Shown one piece after another: positions 2,113 through 33,622 of a stretch of 36,658 nt of DNA. The notes under the pieces were generated by a model. It searched no databases. It saw only the letters and a list, made by a program, of their open reading frames with translations, and was not told the origin of the DNA. A program made the translations under genes and the position numbers. The stretch covers positions 40,151-76,808 of the forward strand of contig PLZG01000022.1 of NCBI GenBank assembly GCA_003152075.1, in the 5' to 3' direction. Origin of the DNA: a candidate division FCPU426 bacterium. GTDB taxonomy: Bacteria > Oederibacteriota > Muellerivitia > Muellerivitales > Muellerivitaceae. Position 1 is the first letter of the stretch; each line of letters opens with the position of its first letter.

Positions 2113-4290
2113 ATGATCACTTTTAATTCCAAACAAAAAATATTCCACCTGGAAGGCCAAGGGACCTCTTATGTCATTGGCGTCTCGCCTCGCGAAGACT
2201 TCCATCACCTTTACTGGGGCAAATCCCTTTCCTCAAAAAGCCTTCAAAAGATCCTCCGGGATTGGCAAAAAAGAGCCATTGAGACCGAACACCATATCAG
2301 CCGGGAATTCCAGACACGTGAATTTCCAGACTTCGGACATAACGACTTAAGGGCACCCGCTTTCCAAGTAAAACAAGCCGATGGTTCCCGAGTCAGTGAG
2401 TTTCTTTATGTCTCTCATAGCATCACTCCAGGCAAACCCGATTTCGGCCTTGGTCCCTCTTCCCAAGTTGAAGACAGCGACCAAGTCCAAACCTTGCGGA
2501 TCAATCTTGTCGACAAGCTCAAAAAACAGGAATTGGAACTTTATTACACCCTTTATCCTCAACGGAACATCGTAGTTCGCCGGACCATCCTGAGAAATAA
2601 GGACGCCAAGCCCATCAGCCTTTTAAAACTCATGAGCTCCAGCCTGGATTTTGCCCCCGGCCCCTATCGCCTGGTGCGTTTCCCAGGCGCCTGGGCCAAC
2701 GAACGAAAAATGGTTGAGGGGCCTCTGTTACCTGGCACCACCCGCTTGGAAAGCCGCCGGGGGATTTCTTCCCATGAGATGAACCCCTTCACCATGGTCA
2801 CCCGGGGGGAAGCCACCGAGGAGAAAGGTGAGGTTTATGGTTTCGCCCTAGCCTATAGCGGCAATTGGCTGATGGAGGCCGAACTGTTTCGCACCGGCGG
2901 CTTGCGGCTCAACGCCGGCTTAAACGATTTCGACTTCGAATGGCAGCTTAAACCCGGCGAAAACTTCACCACCCCCGAATGCGTCCTGGCCTATTCCCCC
3001 AATGGCTATTCCCAACTGAGCTTGGATCTTCACCATTTCACCCGAGAAAAAGTAATTCGGGGAACTTGGCAATATAAGCCCCGGCCCATTCTCATCAACA
3101 ATTGGGAAGCCACCTATTTCAAATTCAACCATGACAAATTGATGAAAATCGCCAAGGCTGGCAAGGAAGCGGGAATCGAGTTGTTTGTCCTAGACGATGG
3201 GTGGTTCGGCAAACGGGACAACGACACCACTTCCCTGGGTGACTGGTTCGTGGACAAAAGAAAATTACCCAAAGGTTTACGCGGCCTTTCCGATGACATC
3301 CATGGCCTGGGACTCAAGTTCGGCCTTTGGATAGAGCCCGAAATGATTTCTCCTCAAAGCCAGCTTTACAAGAAACATCCCGACTGGTGCTTGCATGTTC
3401 CTGGCCGAAAACGCCGTATGGCCCGAAGCCAGTTGGTGCTGGACATGAGCCGTCCTGAGATAAGGGATTACCTGTTCGATACCATTAGCAAAGCGTTGGA
3501 AGAGGCCCGGGTGGATTACGTGAAGTGGGACATGAACCGCTCCCTCTCGGAAGTGGGAAACAGGGTTCTTTCGCCCCAAAAACAGGGTGAGCTATACCAC
3601 CGTTACATGATGGGAGTTTATGACCTGATGGACCGCCTAAACCGGAGATTCCCGAGGGTGCTTTTTGAGGGTTGCTCTGGCGGCGGCGCAAGGTTTGACC
3701 TAGGGGTTTTGAGCTACCATCCCCAAATTTGGACTTCAGATAACACCGACGGCCTAGAACGCCTCTTTATCCAATATGCCACAAGCTTCGCTTACCCGCC
3801 CATCGCCATGGGTGCCCATATTTCCAGCGTTCCCAACCACATCACCCACCGGTCCATCCCTTTGAAATGGCGGGCCTTGGTGGCCATGTCCGGCAACTTC
3901 GGGGTGGAAGCCGATATTTCCAAATGGAGTCCACGAGATCGAAAGGAACTGGCCGGTTATATCCGATTTTATAAGGAAATCCGCCCCCTAGTTCAATTCG
4001 GCGATTTCTACCGGTTGGAAAGCCCCTATAACTCCCTACAAACTTCCTGGATGTTTGTGAATAAAACCCAAACGGAGGCATTGCTGTTTGTGTTTCAGGT
4101 GAAGCCTTGGACCAAAGGCACAAAGGTCCCGCCGATCAAGTTGCGGGGTTTAAATCCAAGTAAAACTTATGAAATCAAGGGAGAGAAGTTAAAAATTTCA
4201 GGGAAAAAGATGATGAAAGTCGGCTGGCTACCAAAGGCTTTTAGAACCGCGCGAGGAAATTACCATAGTTCGCTTTACCGTTTAATATGA
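2113..4290 (+). CDS. Alpha-galactosidase, GH36 (melibiase type)
   Basis: NNWEATYF, FVLDDGWFGKR, GLWIEPEM, YVKWDMNR, CSGGGARFD, WTSDNTD motifs. Confidence 0.95.
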   Translation: MITFNSKQKIFHLEGQGTSYVIGVSPREDFHHLYWGKSLSSKSLQKILRDWQKRAIETEHHISREFQTREFPDFGHNDLRAPAFQVKQADGSRVSEFLYVSHSITPGKPDFGLGPSSQVEDSDQVQTLRINLVDKLKKQELELYYTLYPQRNIVVRRTILRNKDAKPISLLKLMSSSLDFAPGPYRLVRFPGAWANERKMVEGPLLPGTTRLESRRGISSHEMNPFTMVTRGEATEEKGEVYGFALAYSGNWLMEAELFRTGGLRLNAGLNDFDFEWQLKPGENFTTPECVLAYSPNGYSQLSLDLHHFTREKVIRGTWQYKPRPILINNWEATYFKFNHDKLMKIAKAGKEAGIELFVLDDGWFGKRDNDTTSLGDWFVDKRKLPKGLRGLSDDIHGLGLKFGLWIEPEMISPQSQLYKKHPDWCLHVPGRKRRMARSQLVLDMSRPEIRDYLFDTISKALEEARVDYVKWDMNRSLSEVGNRVLSPQKQGELYHRYMMGVYDLMDRLNRRFPRVLFEGCSGGGARFDLGVLSYHPQIWTSDNTDGLERLFIQYATSFAYPPIAMGAHISSVPNHITHRSIPLKWRALVAMSGNFGVEADISKWSPRDRKELAGYIRFYKEIRPLVQFGDFYRLESPYNSLQTSWMFVNKTQTEALLFVFQVKPWTKGTKVPPIKLRGLNPSKTYEIKGEKLKISGKKMMKVGWLPKAFRTARGNYHSSLYRLI

Positions 4291-4300
4291 GGTTGAAAAG

Positions 4301-5377
4301 TTATGGCTGAAATTTCACAATCCGTTCGTTTCCATAATCAGCCACAAAAACACTGCCATCTTTTCCAATGCCAAGACCCATAGGATAAAGGGATATTTTT
4401 TTGGTTCCTTGTGCTCTCCCGCAAACCAGCACATTACCTTTCGAATCAAACTTTTGTATACGGTTATTATCCGAATCCAAAACATACATCTCTCCATTAT
4501 TCCCAAGCGCAATCCCAACTGTGTTATTAAACTGACCCATCCCGCCTCCATTTCTTCTCCAAGACTTTAAAAATTTTCCGTTCGAATCAAATTTTTGGAC
4601 ACGACAATTCCCAGAATCAACAACATAAACATTTCCAAAACTATCAGCCTTAACACAGTTAGGATTGTAGAATTCTCCATCCTTTGAGCCTTTTCGCCCC
4701 CACTCAGTTACCGCTTTTCCCTGAGGATTGTATCGAATGATTTTCGAAAACTCCGTTTCCACAAGATAAACAAATCCATTCCGGCCCACTGTAATGCCAC
4801 AAGGTTTATGATATTGTCCAAACCCCGGACCATAACTTCCAAATCTTTCCAATAGTTTTCCATCATGATCTACCTTCAATACCGATCCCGTTTTACAATC
4901 AGAAATATAAATATTGTTCTTTTCATCAAGAGCCAAATACAACGGACAATCCACACGCCTCATTTCAAGGATTCCGCGATGAGCCTCCTCGCCTTCAGGA
5001 ACAAAAGGGGGTTTTCCAGATATCAGGAAACCCGCTTTTTCTTCACCCATCTTTTCAACTTCATCCGAAATAGAATGTTGGGGCAAATTCGGAAGATTAG
5101 AAACTTCCAATTTTTTTTGAGCTTGTTTGAAAAAGTCTTCCACTGACAAGACACTAACCAGAACCCCGACCTCATTAAATTCAACAATATTTCCATAATT
5201 GATATCCGTAACAAAAACATCACCATCATTGCCAATCGCCAAATCAAATGGTTTACCAACATCGCCTCTGAAGCCACGTGGTAATTTCCAGGATTGAATA
5301 AAGGATAAGGGATCAGAGAAAAGAGGGATGGGAAATAAAGCGCAAAGTAAAATTAGGACCAGCAAACGCTTCAACAT
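4301..5377 (-). CDS. Secreted NHL-repeat beta-propeller protein (low GC)
   Basis: Signal peptide; repeated GxxxGQFxxPxGIxV..G.VYVxDxxNxRIQKF units; nucleotide similarity between 4440-4490 and 4581-4632 (141-nt period). Confidence 0.88.
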   Translation of the reverse strand: MLKRLLVLILLCALFPIPLFSDPLSFIQSWKLPRGFRGDVGKPFDLAIGNDGDVFVTDINYGNIVEFNEVGVLVSVLSVEDFFKQAQKKLEVSNLPNLPQHSISDEVEKMGEEKAGFLISGKPPFVPEGEEAHRGILEMRRVDCPLYLALDEKNNIYISDCKTGSVLKVDHDGKLLERFGSYGPGFGQYHKPCGITVGRNGFVYLVETEFSKIIRYNPQGKAVTEWGRKGSKDGEFYNPNCVKADSFGNVYVVDSGNCRVQKFDSNGKFLKSWRRNGGGMGQFNNTVGIALGNNGEMYVLDSDNNRIQKFDSKGNVLVCGRAQGTKKISLYPMGLGIGKDGSVFVADYGNERIVKFQP

Positions 5378-5396
5378 AGGATAATTCTACACAATC

Positions 5397-5483
5397 TTAG
5401 CTAAGGTCTTCCAACTCAATCTTGATCTTCAATTCCTTGATCAATTCGGGGTCAATCTCCGAAGGCAAACCCGTCATCAAGTC
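5397..5483 (-). pseudogene. Orphan copy of the last 29 codons (incl. stop) of aspS
   Basis: Translates to DLMTGLPSEIDPELIKELKIKIELEDLS* versus aspS DLMTGSPSEIDEELMKELKIKIELEDLT* (6257-6343); 68/87 nt and 24/28 aa identical, no gaps. Confidence 0.92.
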
Positions 5484-5487
5484 TGGA

Positions 5488-5928
5488 TTATTCATACCTC
5501 CAAAGCCACACCACATCAACTCCCGCCCATTCGCCTAAGCGGCCTTGGATGCGGTCCGCCGTAAGAAGTGGAAAGCCCGTTTTTTTGGCAAGCTGAACGT
5601 AAAGAGCGTCATAAACGGTCGCTTTCGGGATTCCGTGTTTGCGGGCAGACGCCGTCAGAGCCACTGATTGAGCAAGAAATTCGGCGTCCCAAGGCGCCTT
5701 ATCCGATAACTGGGCCGCCGCCAGAAGAAACCAACGTTGACCCTGAGGCCCCATTCTTGTAAATCGGTTGGCTAATTCATAAAGCGCGAATTCGGGAACG
5801 ATCACGCGTACTTCCCCGTCCCCGAATCTCTGGTAAAGCTGATCTGCCTCTTCCCAGTTAGGTTCTTCTTTTCCCAGGTACCACTTGAGGAGCACTGAGG
5901 CATCTACCACAAAGACAGGGATGGTCAC
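5488..5928 (-). CDS. vapC: PIN-domain toxin, VapC family
   Basis: VVDASVLLKW...PEFALYELAN...YDALYV...LLTADR acidic PIN tetrad; GTG start overlaps the antitoxin TGA (GTGA). Confidence 0.9.
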   Translation of the reverse strand: MTIPVFVVDASVLLKWYLGKEEPNWEEADQLYQRFGDGEVRVIVPEFALYELANRFTRMGPQGQRWFLLAAAQLSDKAPWDAEFLAQSVALTASARKHGIPKATVYDALYVQLAKKTGFPLLTADRIQGRLGEWAGVDVVWLWRYE

Positions 5929-6188
5929 TTATGGTCCCGTTCCCTGTCCTCCCGGATCATCTTGATGGCCGTCTTCCCCTTGCCCCAACCTGTAGCCCTG
6001 GCCTCCTGAACGCTTAATCGCCATTCCTCGAAGCCAGTCCTCTCGGCAGGAGGAATATAAACCACACCCGAGAACCAGTGTCTGACCGCCTCACGAACGG
6101 CTTCAGAGCGGGTCATATGGTTTTTTTTGGCCTTATCATCCATACGCTTGAGCATTTCATCGGGAAGGGAAACAAGGATTTTGGACAT
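5925..6188 (-). CDS. Ribbon-helix-helix (CopG-like) antitoxin
   Basis: MSKILVSLPDEMLKRMD...TRSEAVREAV RHH pattern and C-terminal IREDR; ATG at 6188 has a GGAGG SD, so the ORF-track start at 6248 is too long. Confidence 0.88.
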   Translation of the reverse strand: MSKILVSLPDEMLKRMDDKAKKNHMTRSEAVREAVRHWFSGVVYIPPAERTGFEEWRLSVQEARATGWGKGKTAIKMIREDRERDHK

Positions 6189-6198
6189 TACAGCCTCC

Positions 6199-6248
6199 GG
6201 ATATCTAGTAGATATCCAAAGGATAAGCTGATTCAGAAAGGAAGTCAA
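6199..6248 (-). promoter_or_regulatory. TA promoter with palindromic operator
   Basis: TTGACT (6243-6248), 17 nt, TATCCT (6220-6225); perfect palindrome GGATATCTA-C-TAGATATCC (6199-6217) over the expected +1 and touching the SD. Confidence 0.75.
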
Positions 6249-6256
6249 TCTTCCGC

Positions 6257-8047
6257 TTAGGTTAAATCTTCCAACTCAATTTTGATCTTCAGTTCCTTCA
6301 TTAGTTCTTCGTCTATTTCCGAGGGAGAACCTGTCATTAAGTCCGTAGCCTTGGCGGTCTTGGGGAAAGCGATGACGTCGCGGATATTGGGCGAGCCCGT
6401 CAGGAGCATAGCGATACGGTCCAACCCGACAGCCATTCCCCCATGGGGCGGGGCGCCGTAGGTCAAAGCTTTGAGTAGGAAGCCGAACCTCTCCTGCGCC
6501 TTTTCAGGCGAGATATCGAGCATACCGAAGACTTTAGACTGCAATTCGGAATCGTGGATACGGATGGTTCCACTGCCCAATTCAAAACCATTCAAGACCA
6601 TGTCATAAGCGCGAGCCGTGACTTTAGTGGGGTCAGTATCCATAAGCGGTAAGTCCTTATCCATGGGGGCAGTAAAGGGATGGTTCATGGAAAAAAGCCT
6701 TCCCTTTTCGTCCTTCCCGAACATGGGAAAGTCCGTTACCCAGGCGAAGGCCCACTTGGGACCTTTCTCAAACAATCCCTTGCGCCGGGCCAGTTCTACC
6801 CTCAAGGCGCCTAGTGAATCGTTCACTACGGTCAGCTGATCCGCACCAAAAAGGAGCAGGTCCCCTTCCTCACCCTTCAGCACTTTTAATAGTTCCGTTT
6901 GCACTTCAGGAGAGAAATATTTGGCGATATTGGAATCCAGTTTGCCGTCCTTGACCTTGAACCAAGCCATCCCCTTAGCCCCATACTTGCCAACGAAGCC
7001 GGTTAATTCTTCGACATCCTTACGGGAAAAGTCCGCGCAACCCTTGGCGTTGATGGCCTTCACAATCCCACCTTGGGCCAACACATCCTTGAAAACCTTG
7101 AAGTCTGATTTAGCGGCCACCGAACCCACGTTCACCAGAGGAAGGTCAAAACGAAGATCGGGTTTATCGTTACCGTAGTTTTCCATCGCTTCGGCATAGG
7201 TCAAACGGCGGAAAGGAGTCTTTAAGTCCTCGCCCAGGGATTCTTTCACAATGGCCTTCATCAGACCCTCGCCGACGTGGTAAATGTCCTCCTCGTCGAT
7301 AAACGACATCTCCAAGTCAATCTGGGTGAATTCCGGTTGGCGGTCGGCCCGCAAGTCCTCGTCCCGGAAACACTTGGCTATTTGGAAATACTTATCAAGC
7401 CCTGCGATCATGCAGGTTTGCTTTAACTGCTGGGGGCTTTGGGGCAAAACGAAGAACTTGCCGGGATTGACCCGGCTGGGCACTACATATTCACGCGAAC
7501 CCTCGGGAGTGTTCTTTATGAGGATCGGGGTCTCGATTTCAAGGAACCCTTCCCCGCTCATGTAATTGCGGGCCGCCATGGCCATCTTGTGGCGAGCGAT
7601 GAGTTTGTTTTTCATGGTTTCACGGCGCAGGTCGAGATAACGGTATTCCATCCGGGTTTCTTCAGCCACATCCACATCGTCTTCGATCGGGAATACAGGA
7701 GTCAAAGAGGGGTTCAAGACCTTCACTTCGTTACAACGGATTTCCACTTCTCCTGTGGCAATCTTGGGGTTTATGGTTCCCTCGGGGCGTTTGGTCACTT
7801 CGCCTTTGACGGCCAATACCCATTCATTTCGGATAAGGTGAGATTGTTTCAAGGCTTTATCGGCCAATTGCGGGTCGAAAACGATCTGGGTCACCCCATA
7901 GCGATCGCGCAGGTCGACAAACACCAACCCGCCGTGGTCCCGGCGATGGTGTACCCACCCCATGAGGGTCACGGTCTTGCCGATGTCGGAAGCCCGAAGG
8001 TCCCCGCACTTGTGTGATCTTTTCCAGCCGCTCATCATTTCAGCCAC
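6257..8047 (-). CDS. aspS: Aspartate--tRNA ligase, probably non-discriminating (Asp/Asn)
   Basis: RRDHGGLVFVDLRDR, LPQSPQ, CFRDEDLRADRQPEFTQ, GAD insertion, GAPPHGG..GLDR, FPKT; GTG start with AGGAG SD. Confidence 0.98.
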   Translation of the reverse strand: MAEMMSGWKRSHKCGDLRASDIGKTVTLMGWVHHRRDHGGLVFVDLRDRYGVTQIVFDPQLADKALKQSHLIRNEWVLAVKGEVTKRPEGTINPKIATGEVEIRCNEVKVLNPSLTPVFPIEDDVDVAEETRMEYRYLDLRRETMKNKLIARHKMAMAARNYMSGEGFLEIETPILIKNTPEGSREYVVPSRVNPGKFFVLPQSPQQLKQTCMIAGLDKYFQIAKCFRDEDLRADRQPEFTQIDLEMSFIDEEDIYHVGEGLMKAIVKESLGEDLKTPFRRLTYAEAMENYGNDKPDLRFDLPLVNVGSVAAKSDFKVFKDVLAQGGIVKAINAKGCADFSRKDVEELTGFVGKYGAKGMAWFKVKDGKLDSNIAKYFSPEVQTELLKVLKGEEGDLLLFGADQLTVVNDSLGALRVELARRKGLFEKGPKWAFAWVTDFPMFGKDEKGRLFSMNHPFTAPMDKDLPLMDTDPTKVTARAYDMVLNGFELGSGTIRIHDSELQSKVFGMLDISPEKAQERFGFLLKALTYGAPPHGGMAVGLDRIAMLLTGSPNIRDVIAFPKTAKATDLMTGSPSEIDEELMKELKIKIELEDLT

Positions 8048-8127: not shown

Positions 8128-9561
8128 TTAGTCTTCCACACCCTCCGAGAGCCGTTCCATGATGTCGTAAAGCTCGGCCAGGGGCATTTCCTTATCCTGG
8201 CGGGTGGAAAGCTGGCGGACTTTATAAGACTTTGGCCCGGGTTTGAAATCGGTGATGGCATAGTCAATACCGTTGGCTTGAGCGGTTTCCATCTGCTTTT
8301 TGAAGTCCTTCTTTTCCAAACAAGCTTCCACTTGGATACCTTCTGAGCGCAATTGCTCGGCCAAGGCCATGATGTCCTTTTCAGACTGCCCATTGTTGGC
8401 GATAAAAACCCGGGGGTAAATAGTCTGGGAAGCCGACTTTTCTTTTTCCACCAAAAGCAACATGATGCGCTCGAATCCCAATGAAATTCCTACCGCAGGC
8501 GTGCCCTTAGGCCCACCCAGTTTTTCAATCAACCCGTCATACCGTCCCCCTCCGCCAATGGAGAAGGAAAATTCTTTGTCTTCCACGTTGATCTCGAAAA
8601 CCAGCCCGGTGTAATAGTCAAAACCCCTGACGAGGAGTGGATCGAAAACGATTTGGGCATCCGGATTAACCGCGTGAATTCTTTGCCGGATGGATTTGAT
8701 ATTGAGCCATATCTTCTCGGCCTGGCCGATCTTGAAATGAACGGGATCAAGTTGTTTGTGCAGGGCGTTCTTGATGAATCCATCGACCTTGTTCAGGACC
8801 TCCATGGAATGGCCCAGGGCCTCGATCTCTTTCATGACCTGGTCGGGGGGCTGCTTGTCGAGCTTGTCGATGGCCACCGCAATCCCTGCCACCTGGTTAG
8901 CGTCCACCCCCATGCCGGTTAACAGGTCTGGAAGCAGCCGTTTGTCGCTGATCCGAATCTTGAATTTACCGACTCCCAGGGCCTTTAAGACCCGGTCGGT
9001 AGCCAGAAGCAACTCTACTTCGTAGGAATCGGAGGTCCCACCCACAATGTCGATATCGCATTGGTAGAACTCGCGGTAACGGCCTTTTTGGGGTCGGTCA
9101 GCCCTCCAGACAGGACCGATGTGATAACAACGAAATGGCTTAGGAAGGTTGTTGGAGTGGTTGGCGTAATAACGGGCCAACGGAACCGTGAGGTCGAAAC
9201 GAAGACCCATGTCGGATGAACTATTTTTAAGACGACTTATCCATTCATCAACAGATTCTTTGTTCTTATCGTCTTCTTCCGCAAAACCTTTTATATTTTT
9301 CCGGAAATAATTATGTGCCTCTATAGCCGCATTAGCGTAATCATCGCCACGTTTTTCAACTTTAAACATCAACTTCTCGTTCTCGCCACCGCCTTTACCT
9401 TGTAACACCTCAATGTTCTCCATGACAGGTGAATCAATGGGCTGAAAACCATAGAGTTGGTAATGGTGTTCAATTAGGCGGATAAGCTTTTGACGTAGGA
9501 GGGTTTCTTTGGGGAGCCAGTCTCGCATGCCCTTAGGCGGGCCGAATTTTGTGTTATCCAC
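8128..9561 (-). CDS. hisS: Histidine--tRNA ligase
   Basis: PKGMRD, LRFDLTVPLARY, WRADRPQKGRYREFYQCDID, RGFDYYTG, GGGRYDGL, GFERI. Start likely GTG at 9561 (ORF track runs to 9591). Confidence 0.96.
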   Translation of the reverse strand: MDNTKFGPPKGMRDWLPKETLLRQKLIRLIEHHYQLYGFQPIDSPVMENIEVLQGKGGGENEKLMFKVEKRGDDYANAAIEAHNYFRKNIKGFAEEDDKNKESVDEWISRLKNSSSDMGLRFDLTVPLARYYANHSNNLPKPFRCYHIGPVWRADRPQKGRYREFYQCDIDIVGGTSDSYEVELLLATDRVLKALGVGKFKIRISDKRLLPDLLTGMGVDANQVAGIAVAIDKLDKQPPDQVMKEIEALGHSMEVLNKVDGFIKNALHKQLDPVHFKIGQAEKIWLNIKSIRQRIHAVNPDAQIVFDPLLVRGFDYYTGLVFEINVEDKEFSFSIGGGGRYDGLIEKLGGPKGTPAVGISLGFERIMLLLVEKEKSASQTIYPRVFIANNGQSEKDIMALAEQLRSEGIQVEACLEKKDFKKQMETAQANGIDYAITDFKPGPKSYKVRQLSTRQDKEMPLAELYDIMERLSEGVED

Positions 9562-9600
9562 CGAGAACCCCTTAATAAGCAAATGCTTCAAATACTACGT

Positions 9601-15433: not shown

Positions 15434-16153
15434 TTATGCGGGCGAAAACGAGGAAGAAAGGCCAAGAATTTTAGATTCCCTTTCAATGACCCCCAAATAG
15501 TGATTTAAACGTTCATCCCTGTCCGCGAATTGGTTGTTGAAATTCCGGCTGTAATCCTTGTAGATCAAAGGAACGGCGATTTCGGTGATTTTCAGCCCGG
15601 CTTTGGCCGCCTGAAGCCAGAACTGAATAGGAAACCCATAATTGGTCTCGGTGAGATTTAGTTTTCTTAAGGCCTCGACCTGATAGCCCTTAAACCCGCA
15701 AAAGCTGTCGGTCAAGTTATATCCCGTCAGCAAGCGAAGCTTTTCCGTGATGACGCGGTTAACTTCCAACCGGTCTTGGGGGGGATGGTCGGTGGCCAAA
15801 AGCGGGTTCAGGTACCGGCTCCCGGAAACGATATCAAATTTGTCCAAATGCTCCAAAAAGCAGGGGACGAATCCGGGCTCATGCTGTTCGTCCGCGTCCA
15901 TGGTGACGCAAAAACGATAGTTGTTGGCCTTAACGAACTCGAATCCATCCATCAGGGATTTTCCATAACCCTCGTTTTGGGGATGGCGAATAATCGCCTT
16001 GACGGAAAGCCGCTCGAGAATGGAGGGAGTAGCGTCATCCGAACCATCGTCCACAATGACCACATCAGCGTTTTTATACTCGGAAAGCCGGGAAAGGATT
16101 TTTTCCAACGTGGGAGCTTCGTTATAAACGGGAACAATGATGGCGAAACGCAT
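15434..16153 (-). CDS. Glycosyltransferase family 2 (DPM1-like)
   Basis: IIVPVYNE, VDDGSDD, MDADEQH, GSRY, TDSFCGFK. Confidence 0.9.
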   Translation of the reverse strand: MRFAIIVPVYNEAPTLEKILSRLSEYKNADVVIVDDGSDDATPSILERLSVKAIIRHPQNEGYGKSLMDGFEFVKANNYRFCVTMDADEQHEPGFVPCFLEHLDKFDIVSGSRYLNPLLATDHPPQDRLEVNRVITEKLRLLTGYNLTDSFCGFKGYQVEALRKLNLTETNYGFPIQFWLQAAKAGLKITEIAVPLIYKDYSRNFNNQFADRDERLNHYLGVIERESKILGLSSSFSPA

Positions 16154-16176
16154 TTAAGGCTCCCAAAAAAGTTATA

Positions 16177-16291
16177 AGTCGGCAGTCGACGGTTTGTAGC
16201 AAGGCTTTCCAAATCTAGTAAGGGCATCTCAAAAAATCAACAGGGGAAAACCTGAGGTTAGTTATCGACCGTGGCCTGTTGACTGTCAGCT
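16177..16291. repeat. Inverted heptamer arrays (AGTCGAC family)
   Basis: agtcggc agtcgac ggtttgt (16177-16197) facing atcgacc gtggcct gttgact gtcagct (16264-16291). Confidence 0.6.
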
Positions 16292-32542: not shown

Positions 32543-33622
32543 TCACGAAAGGTTAATTTTATCCATTAAAGCGCTTGTCTGGGCAGCGCATTTGTCCCAG
32601 GAAAATTCCTTGGCCCTTTTTAAGCCCTTTTGGATCAAATCATTCCTCAGTTTTTTGTCCCGTATCAGCCGAAGTGTTTTTTCGGCTATATCGGCGGGAC
32701 TATAGGGGTCAAAATAAAGTGCCGCGTTGGAACAAACTTCGGGGATCGATGCGGCATTGGACGCCGCCACGGGACAACCGCAAGCCATGGCCTCCAGCGG
32801 GGGCAGGCCAAAACCCTCGTAAAGGGATGGGAAAATCAAGGCTTCCGCCTGGGCATAATAGCCTTTCAACTCTTCAGCGCTGACCTTACCCGTGAACCTA
32901 ACCCTCCCCCCAAACCCTTCCGCGATTTTCTGAACTTCCCGGTCCCCCGTGATAAACCCTTCTTTTTGGCCGACTAGGACCAAGTCGTGGGGTAACTTGT
33001 CCTTCAACAGTTTGAAAGCTTCCAACAACCTTTTCAAGTTTTTATGGGGCTTGATGTTTCCGACGTAAAGCAAGTAAGGGTTAGCGCCGGATTCTTTCTT
33101 TCCCCTTAGCTCGAAAAAAGACAGGTCGACACCCAGGGGGATGACTTGGATTTTTTCCGGTTGGGCGCTCGTAAGCCTCATCAATTCTCTTTTCGTAAAT
33201 TCCGAAATGACGGAGATGGCCGAGGCCTTCCTCACCGCTCGCCCGAACATGAACTTGGCGTATAGGTGCCGATGGAATCCCCCCACGAACTCCCCCATGG
33301 CCAGGTGGAACAGGTCATGCACCGTTACTAGCATTTTCCCACCATAAAACACCGGAATATCGTAATGCGGAACCCAAAGTAAATCAGTATCCTTGGGTAT
33401 TTTCCTGGCCAGCTCCCATTGCTGGCCCAGGGAATAAATGGGTGAATGGCATTCCACCCATTGGACAGCCGGACCTTTCGCCCAATCCGGGGCCTCCCCT
33501 TTCTTCCCTAGAAGACAAAAGGAATCTTTTGACCGGAGCCGAACGAGACGCAGTACGACGTTTTGAATGTAGATGCCAATCCCAGAGGAATAAAGCATCC
33601 TAATATCGATGGTGATTTTCAT
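32543..33622 (-). CDS. Glycosyltransferase family 4
   Basis: SGIGIY, TVHDL, YVGNIKPHKN, FPSLYEGFGLPPLEAM. Confidence 0.95.
   Translation of the reverse strand: MKITIDIRMLYSSGIGIYIQNVVLRLVRLRSKDSFCLLGKKGEAPDWAKGPAVQWVECHSPIYSLGQQWELARKIPKDTDLLWVPHYDIPVFYGGKMLVTVHDLFHLAMGEFVGGFHRHLYAKFMFGRAVRKASAISVISEFTKRELMRLTSAQPEKIQVIPLGVDLSFFELRGKKESGANPYLLYVGNIKPHKNLKRLLEAFKLLKDKLPHDLVLVGQKEGFITGDREVQKIAEGFGGRVRFTGKVSAEELKGYYAQAEALIFPSLYEGFGLPPLEAMACGCPVAASNAASIPEVCSNAALYFDPYSPADIAEKTLRLIRDKKLRNDLIQKGLKRAKEFSWDKCAAQTSALMDKINLS

Follow-up and report, generated by a model that had tools for sequence, protein, structure and literature searches.

At rhs, contact-dependent growth inhibition (CDI) as well as type VI secretion system (T6SS) effector–immunity loci, the portions of Kirchberger et al. 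(2017; PMC5361080) and Jackson et al. (2009; PMC2935791) that treat gene-end exchange describe a conserved upstream anchor, an illegitimate join or a circular intermediate, and an old 3′ end left downstream. Here we analyse a locus of similar appearance at the essential aminoacyl-tRNA synthetase (aaRS) gene aspS, in a 36.7-kb stretch (36,658 nucleotides of contig PLZG01000022.1, hereafter the window) from an uncultured peat bacterium of candidate division FCPU426. The locus reads aspS, a ribbon-helix-helix (RHH) antitoxin gene, a PIN-domain (VapC-like) toxin gene, a 28-codon fragment of aspS and an NHL-repeat gene, so that a toxin-antitoxin (TA) pair sits between the live and a stranded end of aspS. 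We tentatively read it as a 3′-end (C-terminal) displacement scar left by homology-facilitated illegitimate recombination (HFIR) with the TA pair as cargo, an account to which we give somewhat less than an even chance; the locus is not a self-mobile element.

Within the scope of those portions of text, the likeness to rhs, CDI and T6SS loci lies in the gain of a new 3′ end together with companion genes, the orphaning of the old end downstream, the upstream anchor and the absence of an integrase. They differ in that there the tip is a different toxin domain accompanied by an immunity gene, with selection on the new tip, whereas at aspS we find a single essential gene with functionally equivalent tips, an independent TA operon with its own predicted promoter, and one orphan rather than an array. 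HFIR, as described in parts of PMC2884548 and PMC5361080, shares with the aspS locus one homologous anchor and one illegitimate end, the addition of foreign DNA and the replacement of recipient DNA between the two joints; it was defined experimentally, whereas the aspS case is reconstructed from a footprint in an uncultured organism, in which the anchor identity would have been only ~80–87% and the junction microhomology at most GAC.

The aspS locus also bears comparison with a third kind of system, in that a direct repeat of the live and the displaced, diverged gene end brackets the insert. Elements such as e14 in icd and those of the ICESt type at fda, together with integrase-less relics (cis-mobilizable elements, CIMEs), rebuild the 3′ end of their target gene. 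The difference is that at aspS no integrase, identical core, target recurrence or element ends were found. The recombination scar that we describe is of a known kind; what is unusual is its cargo and its site, an essential aaRS gene. Our literature search, which did not cover subscription journals, found no published case in which displacement of a gene's end had placed a TA module at an aaRS gene or at any other housekeeping gene.

Results

Two diverged ends of aspS bracket a toxin-antitoxin pair

The gene at 6257–8047 is the sole aspS in the 4.1-Mb genome that carries the window (G000), which we compared with relatives numbered G001–G030, G001, G002 and G003 being its congeners. The features of the locus, in window coordinates, are as follows.

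8128–9591, minus strand: hisS, upstream of aspS
6257–8047, minus strand: aspS, 596 aa, with OB-fold, class II core (tRNA-synt_2) and GAD domains by Pfam
7709–8047, minus strand: 5′ part of aspS (nt 1–339), anticodon-binding domain, carrying the species or genus signal
7600–7708, minus strand: zone of the putative left homologous crossover, aspS nt 340–448, from the maximum chi-square breakpoint
6257–7599, minus strand: 3′ part of aspS (nt 449–1791), with catalytic core, GAD insert, motif 3 and live tail, of allele clade A
6257–6343, minus strand: live aspS tail, the final 28 codons and TAA, from alignment
6194–6249, minus strand: predicted TA promoter and operator, starting 8 nt past the aspS stop, from a promoter scan and an inverted repeat
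5925–6188, minus strand: RHH antitoxin gene, 87 aa, most likely start MSKILV, PF01402 (RHH_1)
5488–5928, minus strand: PIN-domain toxin gene, VapC-like, 146 aa, stop at 5488–5490, PF01850 (PIN)
5484–5487, minus strand: four-base junction between vapC stop and orphan, TCCA on the coding strand, the putative illegitimate junction
5397–5483, minus strand: orphan aspS tail, 28 codons and TAA, without a start codon of its own in this context, a pseudogene fragment, from alignment and repeat search
4301–5377, minus strand: NHL-repeat secreted protein gene (Pfam NHL), beginning 19 nt past the orphan stop
2113–4290, plus strand: GH36 alpha-galactosidase gene, convergent with aspS

On the minus strand, 5397–5483 and 6257–6343 translate to DLMTGLPSEIDPELIKELKIKIELEDLS and DLMTGSPSEIDEELMKELKIKIELEDLT, respectively, each closed by TAA, and the two align without a gap, with 68/87 nt and 24/28 aa identical. 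Ten of the codon differences are purely synonymous and four change the residue; at the nucleotide level 12 of the 19 differences are synonymous, an excess that free drift of the orphan after an in-situ duplication would produce with P of ~0.02 or less. Because of this excess, the comparison supports the view that the two tails differ like alleles from different genomes, unlike a fresh target-site duplication. Three of the four replacement states of the orphan occur in natural alleles, and the live tail is identical in protein sequence to the tails of G003, G004, G020 and G006.

A repeat search returned the pair as an 88-nt direct repeat of 78% identity. In a BLAST search with the cassette it was the sole significant second match in the whole genome (E 3e-13), and no third copy of the aspS tail was found there. 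The homology has sharp borders, at the GAC of codon 569 and at the stop codon (TAAG); the longest identical run, 14 nt, is internal to the repeat, and the runs at the borders measure 5, 5 and 4 nt.

Much of this had been drawn from the letters alone in a preliminary description of the stretch. The two gap-free aspS ends with their identities (on which sequence, alignment and script agree), the start of the orphan 4 nt beyond the vapC stop (bases 5484–5487 intervene), the view of the tails as diverged alleles, and the counts of G/C-ending codons (20/28 in the orphan, 13/28 in the live tail) with the use of TTA, ATA, CTA and ACA in the live tail all stand. Its further step, that codon usage marks the live tail as foreign, holds less well. 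The aspS body has 371/568 G/C-ending codons, and the live tail, which includes TTA twice, ATA, CTA, ACA and TCT, has a synonymous-codon log-likelihood of −31.4 against −28.95 ± 2.98 for aspS windows, 21% of which score equally low; we rejected codon usage as a marker on account of this weak contrast.

A 7-mer, AAGATTG on the coding strand, lies directly past the orphan stop (TAAGATTG) and recurs on the left border of the TA cassette (GGAAGATTGAC), around 5390–5400 and 6242–6256; chance or the trace of an earlier junction are both possible.

The catalytic part of aspS belongs to a discordant allele clade

In trees of aspS codons 141–568 the alleles of the family fall into two clades (100/100). 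Clade A holds G000 with G003, G004, G020, G026, G007, G010 and G014; in clade B the congeners G001 and G002, which are 94% identical, form a sister pair (97/92), and a grouping of G000 with G002 is rejected for this region (approximately unbiased test, p-AU 1e-128). Elsewhere in the genome the affinities run the other way. An rpoB tree joins G000 to G001 and G002 (0.97 in FastTree; G003 without the gene), and four neighbouring genes (1965 columns) return the genus as monophyletic (100/100) with the topology ((G003,G001),(G002,G000)). Percent identities to G000, given for G002/G004, are 70/58 for PBP, 69/64 for a 536-aa protein, 84/77 for GT2, 65/52 for TPR, 84/73 for PGM, 70/68 for GH5 and 77/67 for hisS, with dut (83/83) and rpoB (93/94) within a point; the hisS values are noisy (80% for G002, 82% for G011 and 81% for G015 over the shared range). 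G002 is thus clearly nearer to G000 than is G004 in seven of nine other genes, whereas in aspS the order is reversed (79/91).

To locate the change of affinity within the gene, we used sites at which G001 and G002 agree and differ from the clade-A consensus. Up to nt 339, G000 matches G001 and G002 at 5/6 such sites and clade A at 1/6; beyond nt 339 it matches clade A at 69 of 79 informative sites. The maximum chi-square scan places the breakpoint between nt 339 and 448, with a statistic that 17 of 5000 shuffles equal or exceed; the scan for a recombination breakpoint proposed in the preliminary description did return a break within aspS. A consensus scan with clade B taken as a whole gave no signal (1189/2000 shuffles do as well as the data), since the first 400 nt do not differentiate the clades. 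A second and firm mosaic is found in G014, whose 5′ part groups with its congener G024 (99/98) and whose 3′ part belongs to clade A, G014 with G024 being rejected for the 3′ part (p 1.5e-4). Judged from these trees, the catalytic module of aspS crosses between genera in the family, and the G000 copy is best described as a chimera.

It had been proposed that incoming DNA brought an aspS end together with the TA genes. If DNA did come in with them, it would have comprised ~1.35 kb of aspS (codons ~141–596), the part of discordant allele type, rather than the tail alone. The live tail groups with the aspS body, a result named in advance as refuting; it is not refuting, because the body itself is of the discordant clade-A type.

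Some replacement states of the orphan tail occur in clade-B alleles

P12, I15 and S28, three of the orphan's replacement states, are also present in natural alleles of the G002/G005/G021 group, a sub-clade that holds G001 and G002, and they occur together in G021 (26/28 aa identical to the orphan). Among the 14 clade-B tails, which include the partial tail of G017 (L025), P12 is present in four and I15 in three, and neither appears in the seven other clade-A tails. The best nucleotide match to the orphan is G002, at 71/87. We lean towards the orphan being the older resident tail and the live tail the imported one, because P12 and I15 are confined to clade B among the tails sampled, because G002 is the best nucleotide match and because the TA genes are linked to a clade-A aspS in G007.

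The cassette is an ordinary module of a rare sub-family

The antitoxin matches PF01402 (RHH_1, E 1.2e-8) and is 78–79% identical to its G007 homologue. The toxin matches PF01850 (PIN, E 1.6e-11) over residues 7–131, and its residues D9, E46, D107 and D125, which we take to be the PIN catalytic quartet, are invariant between it and the G007 homologue. The antitoxin stop (5925–5927) overlaps the vapC start (5926–5928). Upstream, a predicted promoter consists of a −35 TTGACT, a 17-nt spacer and a −10 TATCCT (one site in a scan for which 0.9 is expected by chance), and a predicted operator palindrome of 14 nt, GGATATCTA/TAGATATCC, lies over the −10 box; promoter and palindrome are both kept in G007 and G030. 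The most likely antitoxin start is the ATG at 6186–6188, which gives the MSKILV... of its homologues, and not the TTG at 6248, from which the preliminary description had begun the module; 6194–6249 is reassigned to the putative promoter and operator. No terminator-like site was found within 5250–6450, which makes read-through transcription from aspS into the TA genes likely. By its antitoxin–toxin order, stop/start overlap, RHH_1 and PIN families, four acidic residues and palindromic putative operator, the cassette is, at the level of sequence, an ordinary VapBC-type type II TA module. Nothing in the module itself departs from that type; its sub-family is rare.

The closest VapC relatives are those of G030 (74–75% aa identity), P0002 (73%) and G007 (62–63%). 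The P0002 gene is located on a 2.6-kb contig. Between the −35 box and the vapC stop the G007 cassette matches that of the window at 547/770 nt (71%), and homology with both G007 and G030 is limited to the span from ATTGACTT through the vapC stop. In G007 the cassette lies downstream of a clade-A aspS, 140 nt past its stop and without an orphan tail; in G030 it lies at a different locus, likewise without a tail repeat. The sub-family is present in 3/31 family genomes. In a 5.8-billion-cluster protein collection, four proteins matched VapC at E ≤ 1e-20, including a partial copy of the VapC encoded in the window itself. A VapC alignment search for further TA contexts in genome contigs gave two distant partial matches (44–47% over ~40 residues), and none of 149 pattern matches in metagenome contigs was confirmed.

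G007 and G026, both of genus g5, form a second presence/absence pair for the TA genes: G026 has a DUF429 gene between aspS and GH36 and no TA, and G007 has the TA before DUF429 (L031 6300–7121; L033). In G030 the aspS gene (L084, G030:C53, 3259–5045) reads in pieces, with TGA stops and frame changes, and may be a broken gene, a mixed assembly or the product of sequencing errors; its 3′ part is clade-A-like (88% over residues 366–596), and the congeners G012 and G023 carry clade-B alleles.

The junctions are real and carry no mark of a mobile element

Contigs from run X1, which belongs to a study separate from that of X18, cover 5319–5749 and 5754–6478 with 0 differences, bridging the NHL/orphan/vapC junctions and the TA/aspS junction. 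X18 itself yields a near-identical 10.7-kb contig over the whole of this stretch, which may be the source assembly, and a contig from X5 adds 5310–5460. A chimeric assembly had been named as a way in which the locus could mislead; because the contigs of a second study carry both junctions and agree base for base, the locus is real. No joints or deletion variants appeared among the contigs compared (contigs only; X5 and X6 have uncovered stretches, so variants may exist).

Pfam searches assign families to 25 of the 28 window proteins and leave three without a match, and none of the 28 matches a recombinase or transposase family. The ends of the cassette show neither terminal inverted repeats nor an attC-like structure, the one tight palindrome there being the putative operator, and no identical att-like core was found at the repeat borders, where identical runs are 4–5 nt. 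The preliminary description had likewise seen no recombinase, transposase or terminal inverted repeats, and had offered an att core with a cognate integrase as another origin of the junctions; neither was found among the 28 proteins or at the repeat borders. A search of 99 phylum genomes with the last 59 aspS residues found no orphan aspS tail beyond that of G000, and the remaining second matches correspond to a conserved motif of lysS/asnS-like paralogues.

Four further scars with other cargo in the same genome

We compared the G000 genome with itself in search of direct repeats in which the stop of a long open reading frame (ORF) closes one copy while the second copy, further downstream, is outside any long frame. 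The output comprised the aspS pair and four further gene/insert/orphan-3′-end loci, the last three of which are also designated L092–L094.

C31, 46700–50360 (L091 700–4359): clpB; orphan at 50229–50353, 85% identical with mostly synonymous differences; insert of ~940 nt with a 93-aa secreted ORF
C33, 5567–8639: PMT_2-family protein; orphan at 5567–5667, 94% identical; insert with a 141-aa ORF
C54, 33106–37585: DUF7948/SBBP/CHU_C protein; orphan at 33106–33167, 89% identical; insert with a 436-aa CHU_C protein
C90, 13130–16178: GH43–malectin gene; orphan at 15955–16178, 89% identical with one in-frame stop; insert without a recognised ORF

At all five scars the homology stops at the stop codon, and the five inserts share no common sequence and no common junction motif. 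At the clpB locus the last ~41 codons of the gene recur 938 nt downstream, both tail forms are natural alleles in relatives, and the insert ORF of 93 aa is Cys-rich, secreted and without a Pfam family. The gene behind the clpB orphan was not found within 1.5 kb downstream of clpB in 15 relatives, so that the clpB scar favours neither direction of the event, and no Rfam families were found at three of the other scar loci. The preliminary description had pictured a minimal TA element that spreads by hitch-hiking and had suggested looking through the genome for other TA modules followed by orphan gene ends. The loci returned carry unrelated, non-TA cargo, the orphan tail occurs in 1/99 genomes and the TA genes in 3/31; TA-specific hitch-hiking is unsupported, because a TA module is one kind of cargo among several.

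Gene content behind aspS varies in the family

Synteny was read in 16 larger and 8 short loci. Most of the family retains the ancestral order aspS–LysM–phoH–ybeY, with GH36 between aspS and LysM in G000, G002, G003, G004, G007, G010, G020 and G026. Extra genes next to aspS are DUF429 in G007 and G026, a 173-aa ORF in G004 and the NHL gene in G000 only; G015 has an unrelated NHL gene behind aspS. Empty sites are represented by an aspS–GH36 gap of 67 nt in G003 (the same genus) and of 12 nt in G020; in G002 the gap is 230 nt. Since gene content varies there while aspS abuts GH36 in G003 and G020, the space behind aspS is, by comparison of these loci, an insertion hotspot.

The NHL gene is wedged into this space, 19 nt from the orphan tail and 10 nt from the GH36 stop. 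It has a GC content of 0.40 and a G+C content at third codon positions (GC3) of 0.33; GC3 averages 0.62 ± 0.09 over the genome, and a value this low is reached by just 9 of 1022 long ORFs. Its best relatives in 99 phylum genomes are 39–51% identical, so none is close, and it is absent from the aspS locus in all relatives. On composition and distribution it is probably a recent foreign acquisition.

In G001 one contig (L022, G001:C185) stops inside aspS at residue 482 and another (G001:C138) starts ~230 nt short of the GH36 stop; the part of the locus between them, with the aspS tail, is unassembled, which may hint at a repeat there.

Discussion

How a displaced gene end could have arisen

The account we tentatively favour begins with donor DNA from a related bacterium, in which ~1.35 kb of the 3′ part of a clade-A aspS would have been followed by its stop, 8 nt and the RHH–VapC cassette. 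A homologous crossover on the left, in the conserved 5′ third of aspS at nt ~340–448, would have been paired with an illegitimate join on the right, 4 nt past the vapC stop and onto codon 569 of the resident aspS. Resident codons ~141–568 would thereby have been replaced, and the last 28 codons pushed downstream as an orphan, ahead of the resident NHL gene. After insertion the TA genes would be transcribed from their own predicted promoter with its operator and probably also by read-through from aspS, and the addiction logic of such modules would penalise loss of the imported segment. At the right junction the sequence TCCAGAC resembles TCCTGAC at the end of the cassette in G030, and the GAC may represent a 3-nt microhomology at the illegitimate joint. 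One-sided homologous recombination combined with an illegitimate junction had been put forward in the preliminary description, and it is the best-fitting mechanism here. Recombination of this type is reportedly documented in transformable bacteria and in E. coli conjugation, work that is said to include that of de Vries and Wackernagel in 2002, Prudhomme and colleagues in 2002, and Meier and Wackernagel in 2003. The direction of the event, the joint arrival of the aspS part and the TA genes, the recombination pathway and any stabilising role of the TA pair are the parts of this account that we infer.

Several observations weigh against it. A free tree of 84 nt of the tail puts the orphan beside G026 in clade A (88/63), and a tree in which the orphan is held with clade B has a slightly higher likelihood (p-AU 0.549), so that its placement is two-way; the tail region is without clade-diagnostic nucleotide sites, and the P12 codon of the orphan (CCC) is one step from the GCC of G026. 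The preliminary description's view of the orphan as the original host tail thus draws support from the replacement states and from the G002 match, and loses some through the split placement and the want of diagnostic sites. A profile log-odds score for the origin of the orphan was also tried and failed its leave-one-out control. The 5′ segment of G000 aspS takes no firm position in IQ-TREE, where G000 with G002 is neither rejected nor supported. The contrast between the 5′ and 3′ parts would fit replacement of the 3′ part in G000 or in G001 and G002 alike, G000 and G003 are weak sisters within clade A (53/54), which is compatible with a long-resident A allele, and parsimony on the genus tree counts two events for either ancestral state. 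As to the donor, the nearest genomes are 72–80% identical in nucleotides and none of those sampled is the donor; its arrangement of aspS stop, 8 nt and TA is hypothetical, the spacing in G007 being 140 nt, and the TA genes of G007 sit behind a terminator hairpin that is common to G003 and absent in G000. The codon-usage contrast, finally, is weak.

Alternative explanations

The same final structure is predicted if the event is turned around, which we consider unlikely. The clade-A aspS and the TA genes would then be the older residents, and incoming DNA from a relative, running from the last 28 aspS codons through the 19 nt and NHL to the 3′ end of GH36 and anchored by homology in GH36, would have been joined at its other end illegitimately 4 nt past the vapC stop, the orphan being a passenger of the NHL gene. 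The foreign composition of that gene (GC3 0.33, in the lowest 1%), its absence from the locus in all relatives, the unrelated NHL gene behind aspS in G015, the possibility of a long-resident clade-A allele in G000 and the two-way nucleotide placement of the orphan would all suit such a course. The C-terminal region of GH36 would make a poor anchor, however, being only 59–69% identical in amino acids to relatives, and no switch of nearest relative is seen along GH36, G003 being closest both in residues 405–597 (88%) and in residues 598–724 (69%), in what is a low-power test. The orphan (20/28 G/C-ending codons) and the NHL gene (GC3 0.33) also mismatch in composition, unlike the native DNA of one donor, and among sampled genomes with a P12-type tail none has an NHL gene behind aspS. 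More events would be needed, namely a clean TA insertion, gain of the NHL gene by the donor and the transfer itself, and the discordance of aspS would be left unexplained.

Three other routes start from the repeat itself. A circle of ~860 bp carrying an aspS tail and the TA genes might have integrated by a Campbell-type single crossover within the 87-nt homology, making both tails hybrids; the compact cassette and its exact bracketing by the tails are as expected from this, and circles have been proposed for C-terminal displacement at rhs tips, in the relevant part of Jackson et al. (2009; PMC2935791). We nonetheless think it improbable: the tails agree at 78% of positions and nowhere over more than 14 nt in a row, the 1.35 kb of discordant aspS upstream of the tail goes unexplained, no joints of a circle were seen (only contigs were compared), and no second copy of the element was found in the genome, in the 99 phylum genomes or in the protein collection. 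A RecA-type crossover normally needs far longer identity than 14 nt. A diverged direct repeat such as this one is left by elements that enter a gene at its 3′ end and restore that end, and when elements decay it is often the TA genes that persist longest; both points would fit the relic of a CIME-like, site-specific integrative element that targeted the aspS 3′ end with a replacement tail and whose other genes, the integrase included, were later lost or work in trans. We regard this as quite improbable, given that no integrase was found among the 28 proteins, that the repeat borders have no identical core (runs of 5, 5 and 4 nt) and no inverted repeats, that the orphan tail occurs in one of 99 genomes and the TA genes of G007 and G030 are without a tail repeat, and that the five scars of G000 have no common motif; apart from the TA sequence the repeats enclose just 4 nt and 8 nt, so that any deletion would need to have been exact. 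A tandem duplication of the aspS end in situ, followed by TA insertion and long divergence, would be the simplest origin of a direct repeat, and an assembly artefact would dispense with an event altogether. We attach very little probability to either: the synonymous excess (P ~0.02 or less) and the E12P replacement, which takes three base changes yet matches natural alleles, tell against the former, and the base-for-base agreement of two studies' assemblies over the junctions tells against the latter.

Wider meaning of the displaced end

TA modules move between genomes yet are often found without an adjoining mobile element. A TA pair beside the displaced end of an essential gene would offer a concrete route that needs no integrase and can be searched for elsewhere, and the five scars in one genome suggest that one-sided homologous recombination may be a measurable source of gained genes among uncultured bacteria of soil and peat. 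An extension that is conceivable, if doubtful, is that small accessory modules in this lineage, a TA pair here and a secreted-protein gene elsewhere in the genome, enter chromosomes without a mobility enzyme, carried along when a neighbouring housekeeping gene such as aspS or clpB is exchanged for another allele. Were this true, the housekeeping gene would supply the homology and a sloppy second join would strand the old gene end, a TA cargo would make the recombinant hard to lose, and hitch-hiking anchored in an essential gene would be a general route for TA modules between related genomes. Such a route could also account for the passages, two or more, of the aspS catalytic module across genus boundaries in the family.

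The horizontal exchange of aspS codons ~141–596 within the family matters for the use of aaRS genes as markers. Exchange of aspS is recurrent and takes in most of the gene, with left borders in the first ~450 nt; G004 (genus g2) and G026 (genus g5) have aspS genes that are 96% identical, whereas G026 and its congener G007 share only 88%.

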